A DNA stretch of 64,000 bases from positions 1 to 64,000 of the forward strand of contig JBHLRS010000001.1 of NCBI GenBank assembly GCA_048882325.1, written 5' to 3'. The DNA is from Candidatus Thorarchaeota archaeon. Its GTDB lineage: Archaea; Asgardarchaeota; Thorarchaeia; Thorarchaeales; Thorarchaeaceae. Below, in pieces: positions 10,634 through 55,438 of this stretch (the first letter of the stretch is position 1; each line of letters begins with the position of its first letter). The translations under genes and the position numbers were made by a program. Under the pieces are notes generated by a model that worked only from the letters and a program-made list of their open reading frames with translations, ran no database searches and was not told the DNA's origin.

Positions 10634-12805
10634 TCATTCTGATTCTTCACTCATCATTATAAATGGAAGCGCCCAATTTGCAAAGACAAGTGAACTACCT
10701 ATTGCCCAAATACTCGCAAGGTTAACATGCCAGGTGAGGAATGGTAGTGAGTTTATACCCAGTATCAGAAATGCAGCAATGACTACCCCCATGAACACAA
10801 CATCCAGGATAATCACTGGACGAAGTGGATGACCAGATCTCTTGCGATATAATGGGATTATCATAGCCAATCCAAAGAGCAGCAGGATACTTGCGATTTC
10901 TTCTATTCTGAAGGAGGCAAATCCGAATGCTCGCTCAATTTCGTAGGTTTCTCCCTCTGGTGTGAGCACAACAACTCGGACAGTATGTTGAGCTTTGCTA
11001 TAGTTTCCTACATTGATATAGAAGGTGAATGTATCCTCAGTCACATCAACTGTTGTGTTTTGGTACTCACCTACTAACACATCATCCACATAGACCGAGA
11101 TCTGTAAAGATGTCCAATCTGTTTCCACTCTGACAACAAATTTAGCACGCCCAATCACCACATCCGCAGTTGTAGCAAATCTCAGGGCTGGTGGTCCATA
11201 GTTGTTAATGACGAGTACCATCGTGTAGGAGTACTTGTGTCCATAATCGTCATACGCTTTGAATGTGACATTATGTTCTCCCTCTGTGAATAGAGACGTA
11301 TTGAACTGAACAATATTCAGTCCAGGTACCAGGGTTATGTTAATGGCATCTGTCACCAACGCATCATCCACGTAGAGCGTTAAAGTCACATTGTCATATG
11401 GTGTTTCAATTCTAACTGGAATATTTCCATCCCCCGAGATCTCATCATAGTTGGAAATCCCTGAAACAAAAAGCCTCACATGATCCAGAAATATCAATTC
11501 CACTTGAATCGTAGATGATTCTCCTTCTGCAGTGTAAACAATGATGCTGACGTTATGGTTTCCGTTCTCGTATCTACTGGAGTTCAAGGAGTAGTTACCA
11601 TCGCCCACAGGAATAAGTGTTGCATTCCATTCTGGAACAAGCATATCATCAACAGTCATGTTGAGGTAGACATCGCTGTATGTTGACGAGATGTTCAACC
11701 AGAGATCTGCGATACCACTTATAGTAGTGAGAGGTTCTGGTAGAAGTATTTCGACACTAGGAGCACCGTGGTTATTGACAAAAAATTCCACGAAATAGGT
11801 TCCTCTAGCATTCTCACCTGTCACATTGTATTCAAGGACAAATGTGAAGTTCAGAAGACCCTCATCAAGTCCAGTTGTGTTAATCTGTATTGTCTGTATA
11901 CGAATTCCAATTGAGGTTTTATTGAAGTCTGGATGAATCACTCCCTCAATATAGAGGGTTAGATTCAGTGGGTCATAATCAGATCCGATGAGTAAGGTCA
12001 TATTGAAAACATTCGCAACCTCTGAACCATATGCTGGTGACTGGTGATCAACTGTAATTGGTTGACCATCGTTGTCTATTAGATATTCTAAGTACAATTC
12101 TTGATAGAAACTTGTAGCAAGAACATCATACTCGAAGATGAAGGTGAAGTTGTTGTAACCTTCCCAGAGATTGCTTGTATCAATGAGTATACTGATGTCG
12201 TCCGAGGCAATCAGCAGAGGAGTATATGGTGCTTGTGCTACCCCATCCACTAGAACTGTCAAGTTGAGGTTCCCGTAGTCATGAGTAACATTAAGATCTA
12301 TGCTTGCCACACCACTCAAGGTACTACCATTCGTTGGTGTATATAGTGAAACTTCAAAATTGAACGCATTGTTATCAACGAAGTAGAGAAGATAGTAGGT
12401 TTCTTTCTCAGCAAAATACTCGAAGAAGAGTGTGAAGTTCAGCATTCCTTCAGGTTGAGACGTGGAATCCACGGAAATTGCCTGAGCTCCTGTTGTCAAG
12501 TTTGCATGGTCATATCCTGGATAGACTGTGCTTTCAATCAAGAGTGTTAAGTTAAGGCTACTGAAATCTGAAGTGATTACGATGTTGATGTCGAACGTTC
12601 CTGACACTGAGCTCCCATTTGCTGGACTTGTTAAGGCAATTGAAATGTTAGGAGAATCATATCCTGAAACTATTAGGGGTTCAGTTGTTGGTGTCAGGCT
12701 TGCATCGTTTATCAATGTAATATTTGATTGCATCTGAGTCTGAGCAGCTCCAACGAAGATCATTGTTACAATTAGGAGCGCAAACAGTCTACTCGTTGTT
12801 CTCAT
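10634..12805 (-). CDS. Cell-surface protein with about six Ig-like repeats and three C-terminal TM helices
   Basis: Signal peptide MRTTSRLFALLIV; repeats of about 97 aa (P.NG...SG...LNLT...D/NT....EG..NFT); many N-x-S/T sequons. Confidence 0.8.
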   Translation of the reverse strand: MRTTSRLFALLIVTMIFVGAAQTQMQSNITLINDASLTPTTEPLIVSGYDSPNISIALTSPANGSSVSGTFDINIVITSDFSSLNLTLLIESTVYPGYDHANLTTGAQAISVDSTSQPEGMLNFTLFFEYFAEKETYYLLYFVDNNAFNFEVSLYTPTNGSTLSGVASIDLNVTHDYGNLNLTVLVDGVAQAPYTPLLIASDDISILIDTSNLWEGYNNFTFIFEYDVLATSFYQELYLEYLIDNDGQPITVDHQSPAYGSEVANVFNMTLLIGSDYDPLNLTLYIEGVIHPDFNKTSIGIRIQTIQINTTGLDEGLLNFTFVLEYNVTGENARGTYFVEFFVNNHGAPSVEILLPEPLTTISGIADLWLNISSTYSDVYLNMTVDDMLVPEWNATLIPVGDGNYSLNSSRYENGNHNVSIIVYTAEGESSTIQVELIFLDHVRLFVSGISNYDEISGDGNIPVRIETPYDNVTLTLYVDDALVTDAINITLVPGLNIVQFNTSLFTEGEHNVTFKAYDDYGHKYSYTMVLVINNYGPPALRFATTADVVIGRAKFVVRVETDWTSLQISVYVDDVLVGEYQNTTVDVTEDTFTFYINVGNYSKAQHTVRVVVLTPEGETYEIERAFGFASFRIEEIASILLLFGLAMIIPLYRKRSGHPLRPVIILDVVFMGVVIAAFLILGINSLPFLTWHVNLASIWAIGSSLVFANWALPFIMMSEESE

Positions 12806-46442: not shown

Positions 46443-47642
46443 TTACCAGAGCTGATACTGTCTCTTAACAAATCCTTCCCAGACTCTCGGGAGTTTGGCA
46501 ATGACTTCCTCTGTTATTGACTCTGTGGAGGCCTTCACCTTCTCAATGTCACAGTCTCCATAGAGCTCGACATTGATTGCCAACGGCTCAGTAATGGGTG
46601 CACCAATCTGACTCACAAGATAGCAGTAGACCTGGGAAAGGTCTGGATGTTCCTTATAGACTCGTTCGGTGATTTCCCTTGCGGCTACATTGTAAGTTTT
46701 TCCTACGTGTGACACAGGGTTCTTTCCAGCAGCTGCTTCAAGAGTCATTGGTCTGTAAGGAGTAATCAGACCATTCGCTCGATTACCTCTACCAACTTGA
46801 CCATCATCGCCATGTTCAGCTGATGTGCCAGTTACTGTCAAGTAAAAGAGACCATCTTCGGGACTATCTGCAGTGTTAACACTAACCTCAGTTTCCATGT
46901 CCGTAATCTTGACAGCGAGGTCCTTCACAAGATCAGTGATTCCCTCCATGACATTGGCATACTCATCCTTGTCCTTTGTCTTACTGGAGATTATGGCTGC
47001 CGCAACCTGAACATGGATCTTGTCATCAATTCGAGTTCCCATGATTTTGATGTCTTCTCCAATCTGCGGCCACTGCTTCTTCACCTTCTCACTATTCAGT
47101 AGTTGTTCAGACTCGAGGGTGATTAACTCAGTAGGTGAGAGTGGTGCATAGCCAACACCGAAGCTTGTGTCATTGGCTCGTGGGATACCAGTTTCCAGAT
47201 CAAAGTTACCAACGAGATCCGTGCTTCCAGCTCGTATCTTGTAATCAATGATCACATCAGAGTTTACATCAAGATTCGGGAGGTCCTTACTCAGCCATTC
47301 TCTTGTGTGCTCAACCGCGAACTTGCCAACTGGAACTTGTCGTTCGTAGTCTTTGTCAACAACATCAACAGCTCGTCCACTCATCAAAATGTAAATTGGC
47401 TCAATTACATCACCGCCGCCAAACTTGGCGTTTGACTGTCCTCCGACCAACAGGACCTTGTCCACGTTGTGATGTTGAACCTGATCAAAAGTCTCCATGT
47501 AATATTCGCTAAGGCGAACCGATAATTCCTCTGCAGCTTTGTCGCAAAGGGTGTCGGGATGCCCCTTACCTTTCCTTTCAACAATCTCCACTGGGAGCTT
47601 GTCAACAGAAGGTCCAGCACCGGGCGTGACTTTCAAATTCAT
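46443..47642 (-). CDS. mat: S-adenosylmethionine synthetase, archaeal type
   Basis: EIVERKGKGHPD, HHNVDK, ANDTSFGVG, GEDIK, GKNPVSHVGK. Confidence 0.96.
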   Translation of the reverse strand: MNLKVTPGAGPSVDKLPVEIVERKGKGHPDTLCDKAAEELSVRLSEYYMETFDQVQHHNVDKVLLVGGQSNAKFGGGDVIEPIYILMSGRAVDVVDKDYERQVPVGKFAVEHTREWLSKDLPNLDVNSDVIIDYKIRAGSTDLVGNFDLETGIPRANDTSFGVGYAPLSPTELITLESEQLLNSEKVKKQWPQIGEDIKIMGTRIDDKIHVQVAAAIISSKTKDKDEYANVMEGITDLVKDLAVKITDMETEVSVNTADSPEDGLFYLTVTGTSAEHGDDGQVGRGNRANGLITPYRPMTLEAAAGKNPVSHVGKTYNVAAREITERVYKEHPDLSQVYCYLVSQIGAPITEPLAINVELYGDCDIEKVKASTESITEEVIAKLPRVWEGFVKRQYQLW

Positions 47643-47770: not shown

Positions 47771-48304
47771 GTGATTCTCACAGCAGATGACATCCAGAAA
47801 CTCAGACAAAGAAAGGGTCTGACTCAGTCAGAACTTGCTGCCAAGGTTGGTGTTTCACAATCATATATTGCGAGATTAGAACGTGGTTCGCTCGATCCCA
47901 AACTCTCTCTTGTCAAGAAAATAGTCGACATATTAACAATTGAATCTGGAAGAGTATGTTCTGAAATCATGACAACAGATCCAACCACAGTGGATGCTCG
48001 TGATGTGGTTTCTACTGCTGTTTCCCTGATGCAGGAACACAATTATTCTCAGCTACCTGTTATGCGTGGTACACAAATCGTTGGAATCATCACGGAATGG
48101 GACATCATACAAAACCTGCAACATAATCTTCATGAGATTTCAGTGCAGGCTATTATGAGTCCCAGTAGTGTACTAATGGTTGACGGGAATAAATCCATCG
48201 ACGTCATCATACCTCTTTTCGAGAACTACCAAGCGGTACTTGTCCAGAACCAAGGGCGTATCCAAGGCATCATTACAAGGTCAGACCTGCTTAGACTTAT
48301 CTGA
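47771..48304 (+). CDS. XRE-HTH plus CBS-pair transcriptional regulator (COG3620-like)
   Basis: GLTQSELAAKVGVSQSYIARLE; YSQLPV; GIITRSDLL. Confidence 0.9.
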   Translation: MILTADDIQKLRQRKGLTQSELAAKVGVSQSYIARLERGSLDPKLSLVKKIVDILTIESGRVCSEIMTTDPTTVDARDVVSTAVSLMQEHNYSQLPVMRGTQIVGIITEWDIIQNLQHNLHEISVQAIMSPSSVLMVDGNKSIDVIIPLFENYQAVLVQNQGRIQGIITRSDLLRLI

Positions 48305-48308
48305 AAAT

Positions 48309-49307
48309 ATGCACAGGAAAAATCGGTGGTTTGAGGTGAGCAGTCGACGAATGGCTCGCATATGGCCATATACAAGGTTTACAGTATATCAACGCGAGTT
48401 GAGGAAAGCTGCCGCAAGATGGTTTTCCAAGAAAGGCTATGTAACTGATACGAAGATGCGCTATTGTCTGAAATCTAGAAATGATTGGTCATTGAATATA
48501 ATCTGTAAAGACGTAGCAGAGTATATCCAGAGGGAAAATGAACAGAGTATGGGTGAGAAGTTTTTCCCTCTTCACAAGTATCTCCATCACGGACTTAGTA
48601 GTCAAGCTTTGATATTCAACCTTGTTGGACCTCTCATTGTGAGAAAGGATTTAGAACCTCTTCGAATAGCAATTGAGAGGGCAGGCATTGACTGGCCTGA
48701 AGGGGAGATTACCACAGAGTTTGAGTATGATAATAAGACCATCTTCAATGAAGATTCTGGACAACCCACATCAATGGACCTCGTAATTTCGGGCGAGAAC
48801 GGAAGAATCTTTGTCGAGTCAAAATTCACAGAACAGGAATTTGGTGATTGTTCTGTCTTTACTGGGGGTGATTGTGATGGCAGAAATCCCCTAGTTTATG
48901 GACTTGACACTTGCTATCTCCACCACATCGGAAGGAAATATTGGGTCCTGATGAGTGAGTTTGGCTTCGGAGATTCTGGAATCGCTTCTGGTTTCATCTG
49001 TCCGTTCACAAACTACTATCAATTCTTCAGAGAGGTTTTATTCTCATTGAAAGAAGAGGGTTGCTTCCTTCTTCTCTATGATGAGAGAAGCCCTGTGTTT
49101 GTCAAGACCTCTAAGAATGGTATTGAATCTGGTCTGTGGCCATTTCTTTTGGAATCTGTTCTTAGTCAACATAAAAGGAAAATCGGACGGGTGACTATTC
49201 AACAGGTAGTCCAAGCAATCTCTGAATCTGGACGGCATAGCGATTGGTTGGGTGAGTTCAAGCAGAAGTATGGCATCGATACTCACATTCAGACCAAGTT
49301 GAAATGA
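48309..49307 (+). CDS. PD-(D/E)XK putative restriction-type endonuclease (PGN_0703-like)
   Basis: SSQALIFN, FEY, TSMDL...VESKFTE, Cys cluster, YYQ; start could be 48351. Confidence 0.7.
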   Translation: MHRKNRWFEVSSRRMARIWPYTRFTVYQRELRKAAARWFSKKGYVTDTKMRYCLKSRNDWSLNIICKDVAEYIQRENEQSMGEKFFPLHKYLHHGLSSQALIFNLVGPLIVRKDLEPLRIAIERAGIDWPEGEITTEFEYDNKTIFNEDSGQPTSMDLVISGENGRIFVESKFTEQEFGDCSVFTGGDCDGRNPLVYGLDTCYLHHIGRKYWVLMSEFGFGDSGIASGFICPFTNYYQFFREVLFSLKEEGCFLLLYDERSPVFVKTSKNGIESGLWPFLLESVLSQHKRKIGRVTIQQVVQAISESGRHSDWLGEFKQKYGIDTHIQTKLK

Positions 49308-49383
49308 CAATCTCATTTGAAGCTCAAAGGTTTATTTACCTGTGATACACTCGAACTACCGTCGTGTGGAGATCGCGCTGACC

Positions 49384-51822
49384 ATGAAGAATCTTGATCC
49401 TTCTCTAGCCCGAGTCATTCGTGCACTTGGTATTTCTCATCTTAATGAGGTTCAGCAGACTGCATCAAATGGTGGTCTCTTTTCAACTCAAGATGACTTT
49501 GCTTTAGTTTCACAATCTCGAACTGGAAAGAGCTTTGTTGGTGTCTTACTAGTTGCAAATGAATTGTTCAAATTGAAATCCGATGACGGGCTTGCAATCA
49601 TTATAGCCCCATTTCATGCTTCAGCTCGTGAAACCGCCACACTTGTTTCACAGATTTTTGGCTGGTTCTTGAGGCCTTTAGTCCTTGTCGGTGAGGTTCA
49701 GCAGACTGAGATTGCATTAAGACTCTCTAAGGGTATGGCACCGAACGTGATTATTGCTACACCCGATGCACTTCGAGATCTAATTCGAGGTAATACTACT
49801 CGTGAGTGGCTCCTTTCCAGAAATGTGGCTGTTACTGTGTTCGATGATGTGCATTCAATTCTGCACGACCCATCCAGAGGAAGCATGTTGATTGAACTCA
49901 GTGATTTCTTCAAGGAGAAATGTTCTCAATCCCCACGGCGACTGTTTCTGTCAGCAGAATTCGATAACCCGGAACGCTTGAAGCAGCTCTTTGATGTTCG
50001 TATTATCAAAGACAAGAACAAGTATGTATCTCCCACATTTGACCTTGTGAAGTACTCAGCCCCTAAGGACAAGAAGAAGCAACTTGTTCAACTTATTGAG
50101 AATCTTGCGGAAGAAGGAAAGAGAACTCTCGTTTACATGAAACCCATTGGTACAATCACCAAATTCCTTGATGAGCATGGTTCCAGTATCGCGGAATTGG
50201 CATCCTACGACATAGACCCACTAGTCAGATCACGTCTTGAGAAAATCGCGTGTGTCCTTGACGAACTGGAATACGAGTATGATCATCTGGTTACACATGG
50301 TATTGGTTGCTATCACGGACTGATGCAAGAAGAGCACCGCTGGTTCATTGAGTGGGCATTTAGGCGAAAACATCTTCGCTTCCTCTTTGGTACTGAAGCA
50401 CTTGCATATGGTGTGAACACTCCAGTTTCACATGTGGTTATGGAGTCCCCTGGAATCGATGAGATTTTCAGACAGTCTATGATGGCACGCGCCATTCGTA
50501 TGCGACGGGGTAAGGGTCATGCAGGAAGATGTACAGTCTATGCCAAAAGTATCAAAGATGTAGGTTCTCTCCAAAGAGTCTATGAGAATCCTAACCTCCC
50601 TGTACGGTTCATCACTAACCATAACATCTCAAATCTTCTTCTAGGTCTGATTGGTCTAGATCTCTTGAACAATGAAACTCAGCGAACTGAACTTTCTGAA
50701 AGACTAGAACTTCTCTTCAAGAAAGGATCAACTGGAAGAGTCCTGAATGAACTTGTGAGAGCTAAACCACCTCTTGTAGAAAAAGTCGAAGACACCAAAC
50801 TCAGGTTGACTCCACTGGGCGCACTAGCATTCGAGTCGGTCCTATCAGGAGAACAGGTAGAAAGAGTAGTTGAAGGACTGCAGCTATTATCCACAACCAG
50901 CACTCTTCCTACAATCTATGATCTCCTTCTAATCTTGAATCATGCTAGTATCCTTGAAAGTGAGTCAGCGAAATCCAAGAAGGAAATTGATGAAGATCAC
51001 AAGAAGTATCTCAAGAAGTCCGTAGACTCTGTACTTCTCAACAGCATTCTTGATACCAAGTTGGAACCTCAATGGCAGAAATCAGTAGAATTCTCAACTC
51101 TGTTGCTGAATGCGATAAGCAACACGTCAGAATTTGAACCATCAACTAGAAAGAGTGTCGATCGACTTGTTGCTGAAATCAGACTCTTCTCAATGAATCT
51201 TGTTTCTTTCCTGTCAGGGTTACAGCGAATTGATGAATTTGTTCAAGATGAATCGAAACTCAGGACTATCACAACACTTCTAGACCTATTGAACAATGAA
51301 TCATTCATTGATCTTCTATTTGGACCAGAATCAGAATCTGCAAGCTTGAGGTTTCGTGATTTGTCTTTTGTCGACTTTGGGGATATCGAGAGAACAATTG
51401 ATTTCACATTGACCTCCGACCTTACATCAGCTGAGAAGATTCAGCTACTCGAACTATTGGATACTGTTGAATCGACTACCTCTGCTTTTATTGATCTCCT
51501 TGAGAGGTCTCAAGATGATGAAGATGCTCGGGCTGCATTGGAAACTGTTCTCGAATTTAGTAAAGAGGGTATAATGGGTAAGAACTTGATTCGAGCACTC
51601 GAGGAAGAGGGATTGGTCGAACGTGGACAGTTGGACCAGCTGATGCATAGTTTCTCAACTCGAGTTGACAATTTACAGAAGAGGACTGATGCCCCTGCGA
51701 AAGCTGCCAAAGTCATGATTGCCCTGTTCTCGGGGGATGTAGTCGGTCTTGCCACTAGTGGATATAATGCTCTTCGCATGATTCTAGGTCGACGAAAAGT
51801 TGACACACGTGGAATGTCTTAG
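49384..51822 (+). CDS. Degenerate Ski2/Hel308-like SF2 helicase with long helical C-terminus
   Basis: LNEVQ, SRTGKS, ATPD, FDDVH, LSAE, EALAYGVNTP, SMMARAIR; winged-helix-like LTPLG. Confidence 0.8.
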   Translation: MKNLDPSLARVIRALGISHLNEVQQTASNGGLFSTQDDFALVSQSRTGKSFVGVLLVANELFKLKSDDGLAIIIAPFHASARETATLVSQIFGWFLRPLVLVGEVQQTEIALRLSKGMAPNVIIATPDALRDLIRGNTTREWLLSRNVAVTVFDDVHSILHDPSRGSMLIELSDFFKEKCSQSPRRLFLSAEFDNPERLKQLFDVRIIKDKNKYVSPTFDLVKYSAPKDKKKQLVQLIENLAEEGKRTLVYMKPIGTITKFLDEHGSSIAELASYDIDPLVRSRLEKIACVLDELEYEYDHLVTHGIGCYHGLMQEEHRWFIEWAFRRKHLRFLFGTEALAYGVNTPVSHVVMESPGIDEIFRQSMMARAIRMRRGKGHAGRCTVYAKSIKDVGSLQRVYENPNLPVRFITNHNISNLLLGLIGLDLLNNETQRTELSERLELLFKKGSTGRVLNELVRAKPPLVEKVEDTKLRLTPLGALAFESVLSGEQVERVVEGLQLLSTTSTLPTIYDLLLILNHASILESESAKSKKEIDEDHKKYLKKSVDSVLLNSILDTKLEPQWQKSVEFSTLLLNAISNTSEFEPSTRKSVDRLVAEIRLFSMNLVSFLSGLQRIDEFVQDESKLRTITTLLDLLNNESFIDLLFGPESESASLRFRDLSFVDFGDIERTIDFTLTSDLTSAEKIQLLELLDTVESTTSAFIDLLERSQDDEDARAALETVLEFSKEGIMGKNLIRALEEEGLVERGQLDQLMHSFSTRVDNLQKRTDAPAKAAKVMIALFSGDVVGLATSGYNALRMILGRRKVDTRGMS

Positions 51823-51908
51823 TGAATGTTCCATATCGTACATTCCTACAAATTGTGCCCCCGCAGAATGTCTTATATGGCGAAAAAAGTAGGAACATTC
51901 GGAATAAC

Positions 51909-52565
51909 ATGGCATATTACCTAGATACACTTGACGACCTTCGTGAGGGCCTCGACACATTTGTCGAGAAGTGGGCAAACATACAAAGGAAGTCTGTGAA
52001 AGCCATCCAAGCAGTTACAAATACCATTATGCAGATTGAGCATTTGGACGGACCAGTAGGTAAACTTGAGAGTTTTCAAAATATCCGTGAGAATGCAAAG
52101 GGAATTCTCCTTGTCACCCTCTATGATAAATTAGTACCAGCATTGGAAACCTCCATCCGAGAGTTCACCAAACTCATGCATATGTTCGAGAATCTTCGTC
52201 ATACATCTTCGAAGATTCAAACATTGACCGAGACCATGCGTGGAAACCTTGAAGACTCCCCTGAGCTCGATGATCTTGTGGGATTCCTTGACTTGATCAT
52301 GATTAGTGTACGAGAAGTTCTGAATATGTATGAGTCTGAGTTTCTCGTGAAGCTCACAATCTTCCGAGACTTTGAGGAAGGCGCAATAGAGATTGGTGTT
52401 GTCAGCAATTATCTTACCATTTGGGGCATTGAACCCAACATCGAGGTCAACGCACGTGACAAGCTTCTCAAAGATCTAGATGAGCATGTTGAGCTGCTGA
52501 GAGATGTGTTTGCTGGTAAGACAGGTATTAGGATACCTGACCAGTACAAGAGAATACAACTCTAA
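51909..52565 (+). CDS. CINP/C1orf109-like helical protein (candidate eukaryotic signature protein)
   Basis: KW-x15-N; TK....FE.L..T...I..L; MY..E.L.K.T...YL..W...P.IE, matching human CINP as recalled from memory. Confidence 0.7.
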   Translation: MAYYLDTLDDLREGLDTFVEKWANIQRKSVKAIQAVTNTIMQIEHLDGPVGKLESFQNIRENAKGILLVTLYDKLVPALETSIREFTKLMHMFENLRHTSSKIQTLTETMRGNLEDSPELDDLVGFLDLIMISVREVLNMYESEFLVKLTIFRDFEEGAIEIGVVSNYLTIWGIEPNIEVNARDKLLKDLDEHVELLRDVFAGKTGIRIPDQYKRIQL

Positions 52566-52576
52566 TTCTCCACATC

Positions 52577-55438
52577 TCAAGAAGATCTTCTTGAAGCAAT
52601 TGCTTTTCTTATCTCCTCTATGATTAGGACCACAAATCCAAGAAGAACGATCTCTAGCCACTCAAGAATTCCAAGAGGTACCAACCTGAATATTTCCGTC
52701 ATGAAGGGGATAAGAAATAGAATTCCTACTAGAAATATATCAATGACATAGACTCCGAAGATGAATCTATTTCTGAATATTCCCATCTCACGAATTGACT
52801 TAGTCTGAGATCTGCAATTCTGCACACTAAACCACTGAACTATAATCAGAGTGACGAACATCATTGTTCTCAACTTGTTCTGAGCTAAGAGTAGGTCTGT
52901 TTCATTCTGTGCATTTGCGATAAATCCAAGGTTTTGGTAATATACAACCAATACGATTGCAGCCATGACAATTCCATAGAATATGGCTCTGCCAAGGCTC
53001 TGACGTGAGAGAACACGATCTTTCAGGGATCCTGGACTTTGATCTAAGAGACCCTTCTCCTTAGGCTCAAGAGATAACGCGATGTCTAACATACCATCCG
53101 TAACAAGATTGACCCATAAGATTTGAAGTGGCAGAAGAAGTACCAAATTGTTTCCAGTGAATAGAAGAAGAATTGACAATATTAGAAAACTTTCAGCAAG
53201 ATTAGTAGCAGTTAGAAAGAGCACAACCCGCTTAAGAGAACTCAGGATATTCCGTCCCTCTTCTATTCCATCAACTACAGTTTCGAACCTCTCATCTTGA
53301 AGGACAATATCTGCTGCTTCTTTGGAGATGTCTGTCCCAGTAATTCCCATAGCTATGCCTACATTCGCCTGACGAAGTGCAGGACTATCATTAACACCAT
53401 CCCCAGTCATACTCACAACCTTGCCCGTTTCCTGAAGCGCTTTTACAACTCTTAGCTTGTGAAACGGATTTGTCCGAGCCAACACGGTCGCACCTTTTTC
53501 CAGAGTGTTTTTGAGTTCTTCATCATCCATAGTATCAATATCATCGCCCTTGATTGCGATATCACCCCGTTCTTCATCAAACACTCCCACTTCTCGACCT
53601 ATGGCTTGTGCAGTAAATTCGTTGTCACCAGTAATCATAATGACATTTATACCCGCTCTGTTACTCTTTTTGATATAATCAGATACTCCTTCTCTGGGTG
53701 GATCATTTATTCCACATAATCCTACAAACTCCATACCTACAAGGTCTTCGTCTGAAATCAGCGTATGATTCTTAGGAACGTACTTGATTGCACAAGCTAG
53801 CACGCGAAGACCTTGAGATGCAAATTCACTCACTACTTCTTCTGTACCTGACGCAGTTGTAAGGAATGACTCAATTCTCTCAGGTGCCCCCTTTACAATC
53901 AATAAGTTCGACTCATGAGCATCCAGTTTCGGACCAGGTAGGTGTAAGGTTGCCATGTATTTTCTATCACTAGAAAAAGGAATCTCAGCAACTCTAGGCC
54001 ATGCCTCATCAAGAACATACTTGTGAAGTCCTACTTTTTCCAGACTGACAAGCAATGCTGCTTCAGTTGGTGAACCCCTAATTTGCCACTCACTTGCATC
54101 TCCTGTGCATTTTCTTATTGAGTCATCTTCATCCAAGCAAAGCGAATATAGTTCTGAGTCATTACAGAGTGCAAAATATGCCAGTAGTTTTTCAAGGTCC
54201 GGAAATTCATTCAATCTATCGCCAAGAATAGGTTCCTTTGAATCAGGATGTAACTCCAGATCTACCTCCTCATGGAGTTGCGTAGATCGGAGACAACCAG
54301 TTGGTCCGCATCCTTCGATGAATACACCTCCAACCCTGGGATTGAACCCCGACCCACTGACTTCAAAATAATTATTAGGAGTGAATAGTCTACGGACCAT
54401 CATCTGGTTTCTTGTCAACGTGCCTGTTTTATCAGAACAGATTACATTGATCAACCCAAGAGTTTCAACAACCCCTAGATTTCTAATAATGACCTTCTTT
54501 CTAGATAGTCTATAGACTCCAACAGAGAGTACGATTGTTATAACAGCGATGAGTCCCTCTGGAATAGCTGATACCAACGCAGATAGCGCAAAGAGAATGA
54601 ATTCACTGAGTCCGACCTGACTTGGGATATCTCGATAGAACCCAAGTAGCAATGTTGTTACAAGGAACACTCCAGCGAGAGCAATGAAGAAGATGCTCAA
54701 TCTTTCTAGTCGAATCATAACAGTTGTTTTCTCTTTCTTTATACTTTGAAGCTCCTTGTTAATTTCTCCAAGAACCGTATCATCCCCGGTATTCTCAACT
54801 AATACTCTTGCTTTGCCCTCTGTTACATAGGAGCCAGCAAATACTTGGTTCGTCTTTTCATAATAATGGGGATTTTGAATAAGACAGACAACATCTTTCC
54901 TTATTGGAACACTTTCTCCTGTGAGCAAGCTCTCATCCACATGAAGATTACTTTCAAAAATGATTCTTCCGTCAGCTGGTACTTTGTCACCAGTCCGAAG
55001 GAGAAGTAAATCCCCTGGTACAATCTCTAAAGATCTAATCTCGAGTTCAGTGCCATTTCTGACCACGACTGACTTCTCTTCTATAAGTCGCTTGACAGAT
55101 TCAATTGTCCTCTCTGCTCTCCATTCCTGAACGAATCCAATTATTGAATTGATCAAAAGGATGACTGCAATAACTATTGTATCTTCAGCATGGCCACCAA
55201 TGTATGATATAGCAGCAGCAAGGAGCAAGACATAGACTAGAGGTGATTTGAACTGCCGAAAGAACATGATTAGAGGACTGTCTCCCTTTCCCAAGGTAAG
55301 AGTGTTTTCACCAAACTCAGCGCTCTTCTGGATCACTTCATCATCAGTGAGTCCCTCTGGATTTGCTCCAAGACTTAGTAGACACTCTTTGTAATCTACA
55401 TACTCATCTGATGTTTCAGTCCTCTCGCTAGTCATCAT
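52577..55438 (-). CDS. P-type (P2A) cation-transporting ATPase, probably Ca2+
   Basis: TGES, PEGL, DKTGTLT, KGAPE, GDGVND, TNLAE, NLVTD. Confidence 0.93.
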   Translation of the reverse strand: MMTSERTETSDEYVDYKECLLSLGANPEGLTDDEVIQKSAEFGENTLTLGKGDSPLIMFFRQFKSPLVYVLLLAAAISYIGGHAEDTIVIAVILLINSIIGFVQEWRAERTIESVKRLIEEKSVVVRNGTELEIRSLEIVPGDLLLLRTGDKVPADGRIIFESNLHVDESLLTGESVPIRKDVVCLIQNPHYYEKTNQVFAGSYVTEGKARVLVENTGDDTVLGEINKELQSIKKEKTTVMIRLERLSIFFIALAGVFLVTTLLLGFYRDIPSQVGLSEFILFALSALVSAIPEGLIAVITIVLSVGVYRLSRKKVIIRNLGVVETLGLINVICSDKTGTLTRNQMMVRRLFTPNNYFEVSGSGFNPRVGGVFIEGCGPTGCLRSTQLHEEVDLELHPDSKEPILGDRLNEFPDLEKLLAYFALCNDSELYSLCLDEDDSIRKCTGDASEWQIRGSPTEAALLVSLEKVGLHKYVLDEAWPRVAEIPFSSDRKYMATLHLPGPKLDAHESNLLIVKGAPERIESFLTTASGTEEVVSEFASQGLRVLACAIKYVPKNHTLISDEDLVGMEFVGLCGINDPPREGVSDYIKKSNRAGINVIMITGDNEFTAQAIGREVGVFDEERGDIAIKGDDIDTMDDEELKNTLEKGATVLARTNPFHKLRVVKALQETGKVVSMTGDGVNDSPALRQANVGIAMGITGTDISKEAADIVLQDERFETVVDGIEEGRNILSSLKRVVLFLTATNLAESFLILSILLLFTGNNLVLLLPLQILWVNLVTDGMLDIALSLEPKEKGLLDQSPGSLKDRVLSRQSLGRAIFYGIVMAAIVLVVYYQNLGFIANAQNETDLLLAQNKLRTMMFVTLIIVQWFSVQNCRSQTKSIREMGIFRNRFIFGVYVIDIFLVGILFLIPFMTEIFRLVPLGILEWLEIVLLGFVVLIIEEIRKAIASRRSS

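Follow-up and report, generated by a model that had tools for sequence, protein, structure and literature searches.

What does a relative of the eukaryotic protein CINP do in an Asgard archaeon, and does it act in company with the helicase and nuclease genes that precede its own? The question is raised by a locus in a 64,000-nt stretch of DNA from a Candidatus Thorarchaeota archaeon (GenBank assembly GCA_048882325.1, contig JBHLRS010000001.1, positions 1 to 64,000 of the forward strand), which is referred to below as the window. Four genes follow one another on its plus strand, encoding an HTH(XRE)-CBS protein (47771–48304), a nuclease (approximately 48309–49307), a superfamily 2 (SF2) helicase (49384–51822), and the CINP-like protein, CINPL (51909–52565). 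In eukaryotes, CINP and C1orf109 cap an essential AAA+ machine for 60S subunit maturation and the turnover of replisome proteins, known as 55LCC in humans and as the OPENER complex in plants. A preliminary description of the locus had proposed that the archaeal protein serves as adaptor for a Cdc48-like ATPase and is linked, in a candidate undescribed system, to a degenerate helicase and possibly a nuclease. The explanation preferred here, to which a probability of roughly 60% is attached, retains the adaptor and gives up the system: CINPL would be a housekeeping adaptor of an AAA+ ATPase expressed from its own transcription unit, and the helicase and nuclease would be accessory neighbors. Five sequencing runs belonging to two studies, one of them possibly the source of the DNA, contain nearly all of the region from 47771 to 52565, and an assembly artifact is therefore an unlikely cause of the gene arrangement.

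Homology of the CINP-like Protein to CINP

The open reading frame (ORF) of the CINP-like gene runs on the plus strand from an ATG at 51909 to a stop codon at 52565 and encodes a protein of 218 aa, modeled as a five-helix bundle. All of the sequence blocks on which the relationship to CINP had been proposed are present, at residues 21–38 (KWANIQRKSVKAIQAVTN), 79–106 (LETSIREFTKLMHMFENLRHTSSKIQTL), 140–151 (MYESEFLVKLTI), and 167–179 (NYLTIWGIEPNIE), and when HMMER aligns the protein to solved chains of human CINP, the human strings that had been put forward for comparison (LQATLDGLTKIQVKMEKLSSTTKGICEL, MYRKELLLKRTV, SYLSMWLHQPYVE, and KWETLNDAGFTTANNIAN) do pair with these blocks. Searched singly, the protein finds CINP as its best match in the PDB (phmmer, E 0.013), while its top match in Pfam is PF15011 (CA109-like, C1orf109; E 5e-4), which covers residues 19–120 only and, at 20.3 bits, lies below the cut-off of 27. 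The same Pfam family matches 21 of 23 Asgard relatives of the protein, the best at E 1.6e-14.

Profiles give a stronger signal. A profile of 27 Thorarchaeota sequences finds CINP in the PDB at E 2.7e-4, and one built from 22 Asgard sequences of several clades finds it at E 7.2e-10, with profile positions 5–184 aligned to positions 4–180 of the 196-residue chain; no other family, the C1orf109 chain included, is found in the PDB by the latter profile at E ≤0.01. This Asgard-only profile leaves out one sequence, P0148, that is possibly eukaryotic, and when it is included CINP is found at E 1.6e-13 and the solved C1orf109/AIRIM chain at E 1.2e-3. P0148/P0164, from a 401-kb ENA metagenome contig, is a CINP-family match whose N-terminal extension is of low complexity and rich in Ser, Pro, and Lys and whose WLHQPY motif resembles that of human CINP; it may be a eukaryotic CINP recovered from the metagenome. 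In the archaeal protein, W22, M140-x-E142, and W172-xx-E175-P176 are common to human CINP and lie in the same helices, and these six residues (W22, M140, E142, W172, E175, and P176) are invariant or nearly so across the Asgard clades.

The AlphaFold2 (AF2) model of the protein (predicted local distance difference test score, pLDDT, 84) is all-helical, with five long helices and a short one. A Foldseek comparison with CINP and C1orf109, which the preliminary description had called for, returned chains of these two proteins as the top seven PDB matches, headed by 8cih_A (E 2.6e-3, probability 1.0) and with C1orf109 at ranks 7, 11, and 15. VIA-align likewise placed four CINP entries on top, at Z 15.3–14.6, with 8cih_A again first (Z 15.3, root-mean-square deviation 4.0, 183/188 residues); the best unrelated designed bundle reached 13.2. 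On the profile, motif, and model evidence taken together, CINPL is judged to be a true homologue of CINP and, more distantly, of C1orf109/AIRIM.

The homology as such is already known. CINP homologues have been reported from five major Asgard clades and from no other prokaryote (Koestlbacher et al., Nat Microbiol 2026, PMC12962969; bioRxiv 10.1101/2024.07.03.601958), and in the tree published there eukaryotic CINP branches with Hodarchaeales sequences. This bears out the earlier guess that CINP-like proteins of Asgard archaea might already figure in a structure-based survey.

Distribution and Conservation of the CINP-like Gene

The close homologues of the protein are labeled Thorarchaeota, across which it is 63–95% identical, with a mean column identity of 76%. 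The gene is present in one copy in the window's genome, in 79 of the 85 species genomes of its family, and in 128 of the 400 Asgard species genomes searched, where it occurs in about eight family-level groups, almost always as a single match. It is found in most genomes of seven further family-level Asgard groups and in none of the 135 genomes of the largest Asgard group or the 31 of another. Families f1, f2, f3, f11, f12, f14, f30, and f31 have the gene, and f22 and f8 lack it. A profile search of 1.84 billion representative proteins returned 28 matches, all named ones being Asgard. Longer, fused forms were not found in the search, which is weak evidence on that point. The CINP-like gene is thus a strongly conserved, single-copy housekeeping gene that is near-universal in its Thorarchaeota family. 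Its single copy in Asgard genomes fits a state before the duplication that gave rise to CINP and C1orf109, as had been suggested for this gene, though the protein is clearly closer to CINP.

Some irregular copies were seen. In one close relative (G361; L022:8965–9147), a second, partial CINP-like 3′ end corresponding to residues 157–217 (84% identical) follows the intact gene at a distance of approximately 850 bp. Two genomes from family f30 (G308:C5:51113–51820 and G309:C27:24882–25592) have one in-frame stop codon within the CINP-like match, TAG in one and TAA in the other; the gene could be broken, the alignment could bridge an insert, or there could be another cause.

Predicted Promoter Elements

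A putative promoter element resembling a transcription factor B recognition element (BRE) and TATA box (TTGTGCCCCCGCAGAATGTCTTATATGG, 51853–51880, plus strand) precedes the CINP-like gene by about 35 nt, with TTATATGG located about 33 nt before the ATG. Its core, CCCnnCAGAATnnnTTATAwr, is kept in front of the CINP-like start codon in every genus of the family, whether the helicase is present or not. The helicase gene has a TATA-like box of its own, TTTATTTA (TTTATT(T/A)), approximately 53 nt upstream of its ATG at 49384. Since each gene is preceded by its own motif of this kind, the two look like separate transcription units, with putative promoters at about 51873 (CINP-like gene) and 49331 (helicase). 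A scan for sigma-70 promoters and terminators gave counts at chance level, the model being inapplicable to archaea.

Between the helicase stop codon and the CINP-like promoter lies an imperfect palindrome, AATGTTC-N6-GTACATT (51825–51844, plus strand; the single match in the window), which is kept in the close relatives G364, G360, G361, and G338, including ones from which the helicase has been lost. An operator, to which the HTH-CBS protein would perhaps bind, is one possible role, and a terminator or the remnant of one is another.

A Possible Adaptor of a Cdc48/AFG2-Type Unfoldase

In the human 55LCC complex, C1orf109 and CINP pair into T-shaped heterodimers, two of which are bound to the SPATA5 and SPATA5L1 N-domains, where they line a funnel over the pore (PMC12019325, PMC11055677), and the equivalent plant complex contains OPNR and OAP1 (PMC12332008). 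Homology would have CINPL bind the N-terminal domains of a double-ring AAA+ unfoldase of the Cdc48/AFG2 type and form a lid or substrate funnel over its pore, where, as the sole paralogue, it may function as a homo-oligomer. The window's genome has genes for two ATPases of the Cdc48/VAT type with CDC48_N domains, L050:831–3056 (minus strand, 742 aa) and L051:450–2633 (plus strand, 728 aa), and by analogy with the eukaryotic complexes the odds are about even that CINPL serves one of the two as a lid or adaptor bound to its N-domains. The CINP-like gene would be an independent transcription unit in this scheme, with neither the helicase nor the nuclease as a required partner.

Several points weigh against this explanation. 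Archaea are not known to have an Rlp24-type placeholder, the eukaryotic 55LCC substrate, so the archaeal substrate may differ. The adaptor role on an AAA+ ATPase is a reasonable inference drawn from homology, and a homo-oligomer of the single archaeal protein is a guess, because human CINP and C1orf109 are monomeric alone and need each other (PMC11055677). The structural margin of CINP over unrelated bundles is only about 2 Z units, helical bundles scoring high easily, so that it is chiefly the sequence profile and the shared motifs that carry the argument for homology. Finally, in a comparison of neighborhoods that covered 43 species-genome loci as well as several contigs from metagenomes, the helicase gene was found directly upstream of the CINP-like gene and co-oriented with it at 13 of 14 inspected helicase loci, which leaves some room for a functional link between the two.

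The Upstream Helicase

The gene in question (49384–51822, plus strand; 812 aa from the ATG at 49384, the ORF being open from 49342) ends 86 bp upstream of the CINP-like start and encodes a predicted Hel308/Brr2-type SF2 helicase with Pfam DEAD and Helicase_C matches. A profile of the family finds ASCC3 (4e-19), Slh1 (7e-17), Brr2 (1e-11), and Hel308 (5e-11) in the PDB, and 700–840 columns of the AF2 model (pLDDT 79) align to Hel308, Hjm, Brr2, and PolQ-helicase at E ~1e-21, with the RecA1-RecA2-winged helix-ratchet order of these proteins. Residues from ~430 onward have relatives in Thorarchaeota only (32 clusters among 5.8 billion proteins), and the last ~85 residues are highly conserved and modeled with low confidence.

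The preliminary description had called this protein a pseudo-helicase. Non-canonical motifs are indeed present: DDVH, SAE, and QSMMARAIR replace DExH, SAT, and QMxGRAGR in the window, and all 11 orthologues carry DD[VTA]H in motif II, SA[EVQ] in motif III, and QSMMARA[VI]R in motif VI. The Walker A sequence GK[ST] with its Lys, the first Asp of Walker B, motif V, and both Arg residues of motif VI are nevertheless invariant in the family, and the label is premature for a protein that may still hydrolyze ATP. Around 150 columns are invariant among the orthologues at 46–60% identity, and on this comparison the gene is clearly under purifying selection. The protein probably represents an undescribed, Thorarchaeota-specific Ski2-like subfamily with fixed non-canonical motifs.

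The helicase is confined to 11 of the 86 genomes of the window's family, in four genera, and is missing from the other 75; it was found in none of the other 314 Asgard genomes among the 400 searched, which include every other clade that has a CINP-like gene. In all 11 species genomes it lies between the HTH-CBS and CINP-like genes on the same strand, and two of three metagenomic helicase loci, among them that of the most divergent helicase found, keep this position. Identity to the window's copy falls from 60% within the genus to 54, ~50, and 47%, a ranking that the flanking genes share. When the helicase is mapped on a tree built from these flanking genes, its distribution requires at least five changes, and well-supported branches force at least three of them; the window's nearest relatives are without the gene. 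In one of them, G364, approximately 70 nt of the helicase 3′ end survive in the spacer between the HTH-CBS and CINP-like genes, and deletion, not insertion, is therefore indicated. Among 15 helicase-less spacers, G364 alone holds such a remnant; none was found in the larger spacers of G354 (825 bp), G349 (911 bp, with HTH-CBS fragments), or G320 (604 bp). The helicase gene is accordingly best described, from these comparisons, as a probable lineage-restricted, fast-evolving accessory gene that has been vertically inherited at this position and lost repeatedly.

Two further loci deserve mention. In G326 (L010:2038–2452), two fragments matching helicase residues 680–741 and 752–821 lie directly upstream of a full-length helicase at the usual HTH-CBS site, in what looks like a partial tandem duplication or rearrangement. 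The only orthologue found away from a CINP-like gene is on contig L058, from a metagenome-assembled genome labeled Odinarchaeota, where it lies ~1.9 kb downstream of Ada-like and O6-methylguanine methyltransferase (MGMT) genes and near an IS605-type TnpB gene (L058:1966–3088 and 11076–12458). Human ASCC3 works in alkylation repair, and given that role the Ada/MGMT neighbors could be a coincidence or a hint.

A Proposed Functional Link Between Helicase and CINPL

The alternative that fares best against the preferred explanation, though it is unlikely, is that helicase and CINPL constitute a functional module, optional in Thorarchaeota, in which a Hel308/ASCC3-like motor with a weakened ATPase recognizes stalled forks or ribosomes and passes substrates to a CINPL/Cdc48 unfoldase. 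Its position is consistent with this, the helicase being directly upstream and co-oriented in 11 of 11 species genomes and two of three metagenomic loci even where the downstream genes differ, as are the purifying selection on the gene and its conserved C-terminal tail of ~85 residues, which is modeled with low confidence, as interaction tails often are. From the published record, fork DNA stimulates the ATPase of 55LCC (PMC11055677), and stalled forks and ribosomes are the sites of action of ASCC3 and Slh1, which the helicase matches best in sequence. Fixed position, however, is what vertical descent within a syntenic block (M3 peptidase to orf394) predicts on its own. The gene is missing from most genomes of the family and from all other Asgard clades in which a CINP-like gene occurs, has been deleted in the window's nearest relatives with the CINP-like promoter kept, has, like the CINP-like gene, a TATA-like box of its own, and on L058 neighbors Ada/MGMT and TnpB genes without a CINP-like gene in the vicinity.

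The synteny with the helicase gene that had been put forward as a check of the system does not bear it out: adjacency is seen at 13 of the 14 helicase loci, but co-occurrence across genomes is not conserved and a deletion relic is present. Given this pattern of absence from 75 of 86 family genomes and from the other CINPL clades, of deletion in close relatives, and of a location elsewhere in one contig, the candidate helicase system is not sustained, and a functional link of any kind between the helicase and CINPL seems improbable. More doubtful still is the specific proposal that the helicase, which carries fixed DDxH/SAx motifs and a conserved disordered tail, serves an archaeal CINPL/Cdc48 unfoldase as an optional substrate-recognition arm; if true, this would be a prokaryotic precursor of the connection that 55LCC has with stalled replication forks or ribosomes.

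The Nuclease Gene and the Remaining Alternatives

Upstream of the helicase, as had been suspected, lies a gene for a PD-(D/E)XK nuclease of the REase-ARP family (PF22558, E 3.6e-48; 48309–49307, plus strand, with an uncertain start codon and an ORF open from TTG 48180). Its membership in a system with CINPL finds no support in the comparison, as REase-ARP genes occur in four of the 400 Asgard genomes and at the CINP-like locus in the window's genome only. Relatives of the protein are mostly bacterial, some from phage. The gene appears from its distribution and sequence relatives to be a private, recent insertion of a bacterial/phage-type gene between the HTH-CBS stop codon and the helicase promoter, which suggests a mobile or defense-type gene. 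Three REase-ARP copies are present in G349, of the same genus, on the short contigs C56, C159, and C133; neither these copies nor those of G322 and G023, all on short contigs, have an adjoining helicase or a recurrent partner. A search of the published literature for REase-ARP or PF22558 found nothing.

It is very unlikely that the nuclease and helicase are instead a Hachiman-like defense pair, consisting of a PD-(D/E)XK nuclease and a Hel308-like helicase, that happens to adjoin the CINP-like gene. In the window the nuclease and helicase genes adjoin each other on one strand, the helicase core matches HamB models at E 1e-11 and PDC-M23B at 2e-13, the REase-ARP relatives are bacterial or phage-borne and sporadic, as defense genes tend to be, and the helicase is patchy in distribution and fast-evolving. 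Yet the nuclease accompanies the helicase in only one of 11 genomes, has no PADLOC match, and belongs to PF22558, which is distinct from the DUF1837 HamA family; the HamB matches cover the generic SF2 core only and are weaker than those to ASCC3 and Slh1; the other nuclease copies are on short contigs without an adjoining helicase; and the helicase retains its own TATA-like box downstream of the nuclease. The weakest alternative, that the resemblance to CINP is convergence of a generic helical bundle with chance sequence similarity, could point to the Z of 13 reached by designed bundles, the weak single-sequence E-values (0.013 and 5e-4), and an identity to human CINP of 16–19%, and is rendered exceedingly improbable by the Asgard-only profile, which refutes it in finding CINP alone below E 0.01, at 7.2e-10 and collinearly over 180 of 196 residues, by the placement of the shared motifs in the same helices, and by the independent grouping of eukaryotic CINP with Hodarchaeales in the published tree (PMC12962969).

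Neighboring Genes and Synteny

The housekeeping CINP-like gene of the preferred explanation sits in a stable neighborhood. The family backbone comprises genes for an M3 peptidase, S-adenosylmethionine (SAM) synthetase, HTH-CBS, CINPL, a P-type ATPase in some genomes, an Na/H exchanger, a PhoU-like protein, orf83, and orf394, and its core of SAM synthetase, HTH-CBS, and CINPL is also kept in the order-level relative G311. The archaeal SAM synthetase gene (46443–47642, minus strand; PF01941, E 8e-152) is syntenic in all family loci inspected. The HTH(XRE)-CBS regulator gene (47771–48304, plus strand; HTH and CBS matches), the conserved upstream neighbor, diverges from it throughout the family and in the order-level relative (window:46443–48304; L001, L004–L023, L036, and L040–L043). 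Because CBS domains bind adenosyl ligands, the HTH-CBS protein may regulate the SAM synthetase gene in response to SAM.

Downstream, a P-type cation ATPase gene identified by Pfam (52577–55438, minus strand) converges on the CINP-like gene, as does the Na/H exchanger gene. The ATPase gene is present or absent at the same place among relatives, and in the opposite orientation in L057, and its position marks a second variable spot at the locus. The CINP-like genes of other Asgard clades have unrelated neighbors, such as TrmB and MetRS, or PolB and a ribosomal-protein operon. The Thorarchaeota order of SAM synthetase, HTH-CBS, an optional helicase, and CINPL, together with the promoter motifs, is new here and a modest addition.

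Comparison with Known Systems

The predicted helicase shares with Hel308/Hjm, Brr2, ASCC3, Slh1, and PolQ-helicase the RecA1-RecA2-winged helix-ratchet architecture and an HxxxDxxRG motif context typical of the group. It differs from other Ski2-like helicases in its fixed DD[VTA]H, SA[EVQ], and QSMMARA[VI]R motifs and in a unique C-terminal region of ~150 residues that occurs in Thorarchaeota only, and the three Ski2-like groups of archaea listed in the available part of PMC10946056 do not include it.

CINPL resembles human CINP (PDB 8CIH, 9GWJ, 8RHN, and 9LGO), a subunit of 55LCC, in its length and five-helix-bundle topology (Z 15, 150–188 residues aligned) and in the conservation of the helix-1 Trp and the MYxxE and WxxxPYxE motifs in both proteins. 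The two differ in that only 16–19% of residues are identical, in that the archaeal protein carries a further conserved helix and tail at its C-terminus (residues 180–214), and in that the window's genome, when searched, proved to be without a C1orf109-type paralogue, as is also the rule in other Asgard genomes. With C1orf109/AIRIM (PF15011) and plant OPNR the likeness is of a lesser degree: PF15011 is the top Pfam match and C1orf109 chains are among the top Foldseek matches, although CINPL falls below the Pfam threshold and is closer to CINP.

From the Asgard CINPL already published (PMC12962969), the protein described here differs in nothing essential. Both belong to one family of ~200–240-aa helical proteins that is confined to some Asgard clades and has full-length similarity to CINP by structure and profile, and the count of 128 of 400 genomes in about eight family-level groups agrees with the five clades reported there; genomic context, partner, and function of CINPL are not given in the available text. 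An Asgard homologue dates part of a 55LCC-type machine to before the eukaryotes, a point already made in print. What is added here is that the Thorarchaeota CINP-like gene is a near-universal, single-copy housekeeping gene, predicted to be separately promoted, in a stable neighborhood; that the proposed helicase and nuclease system falls apart on genome comparison, with repeated helicase loss documented; and that a probable Thorarchaeota-specific subfamily of Ski2-like helicases with fixed non-canonical motifs stands beside it.

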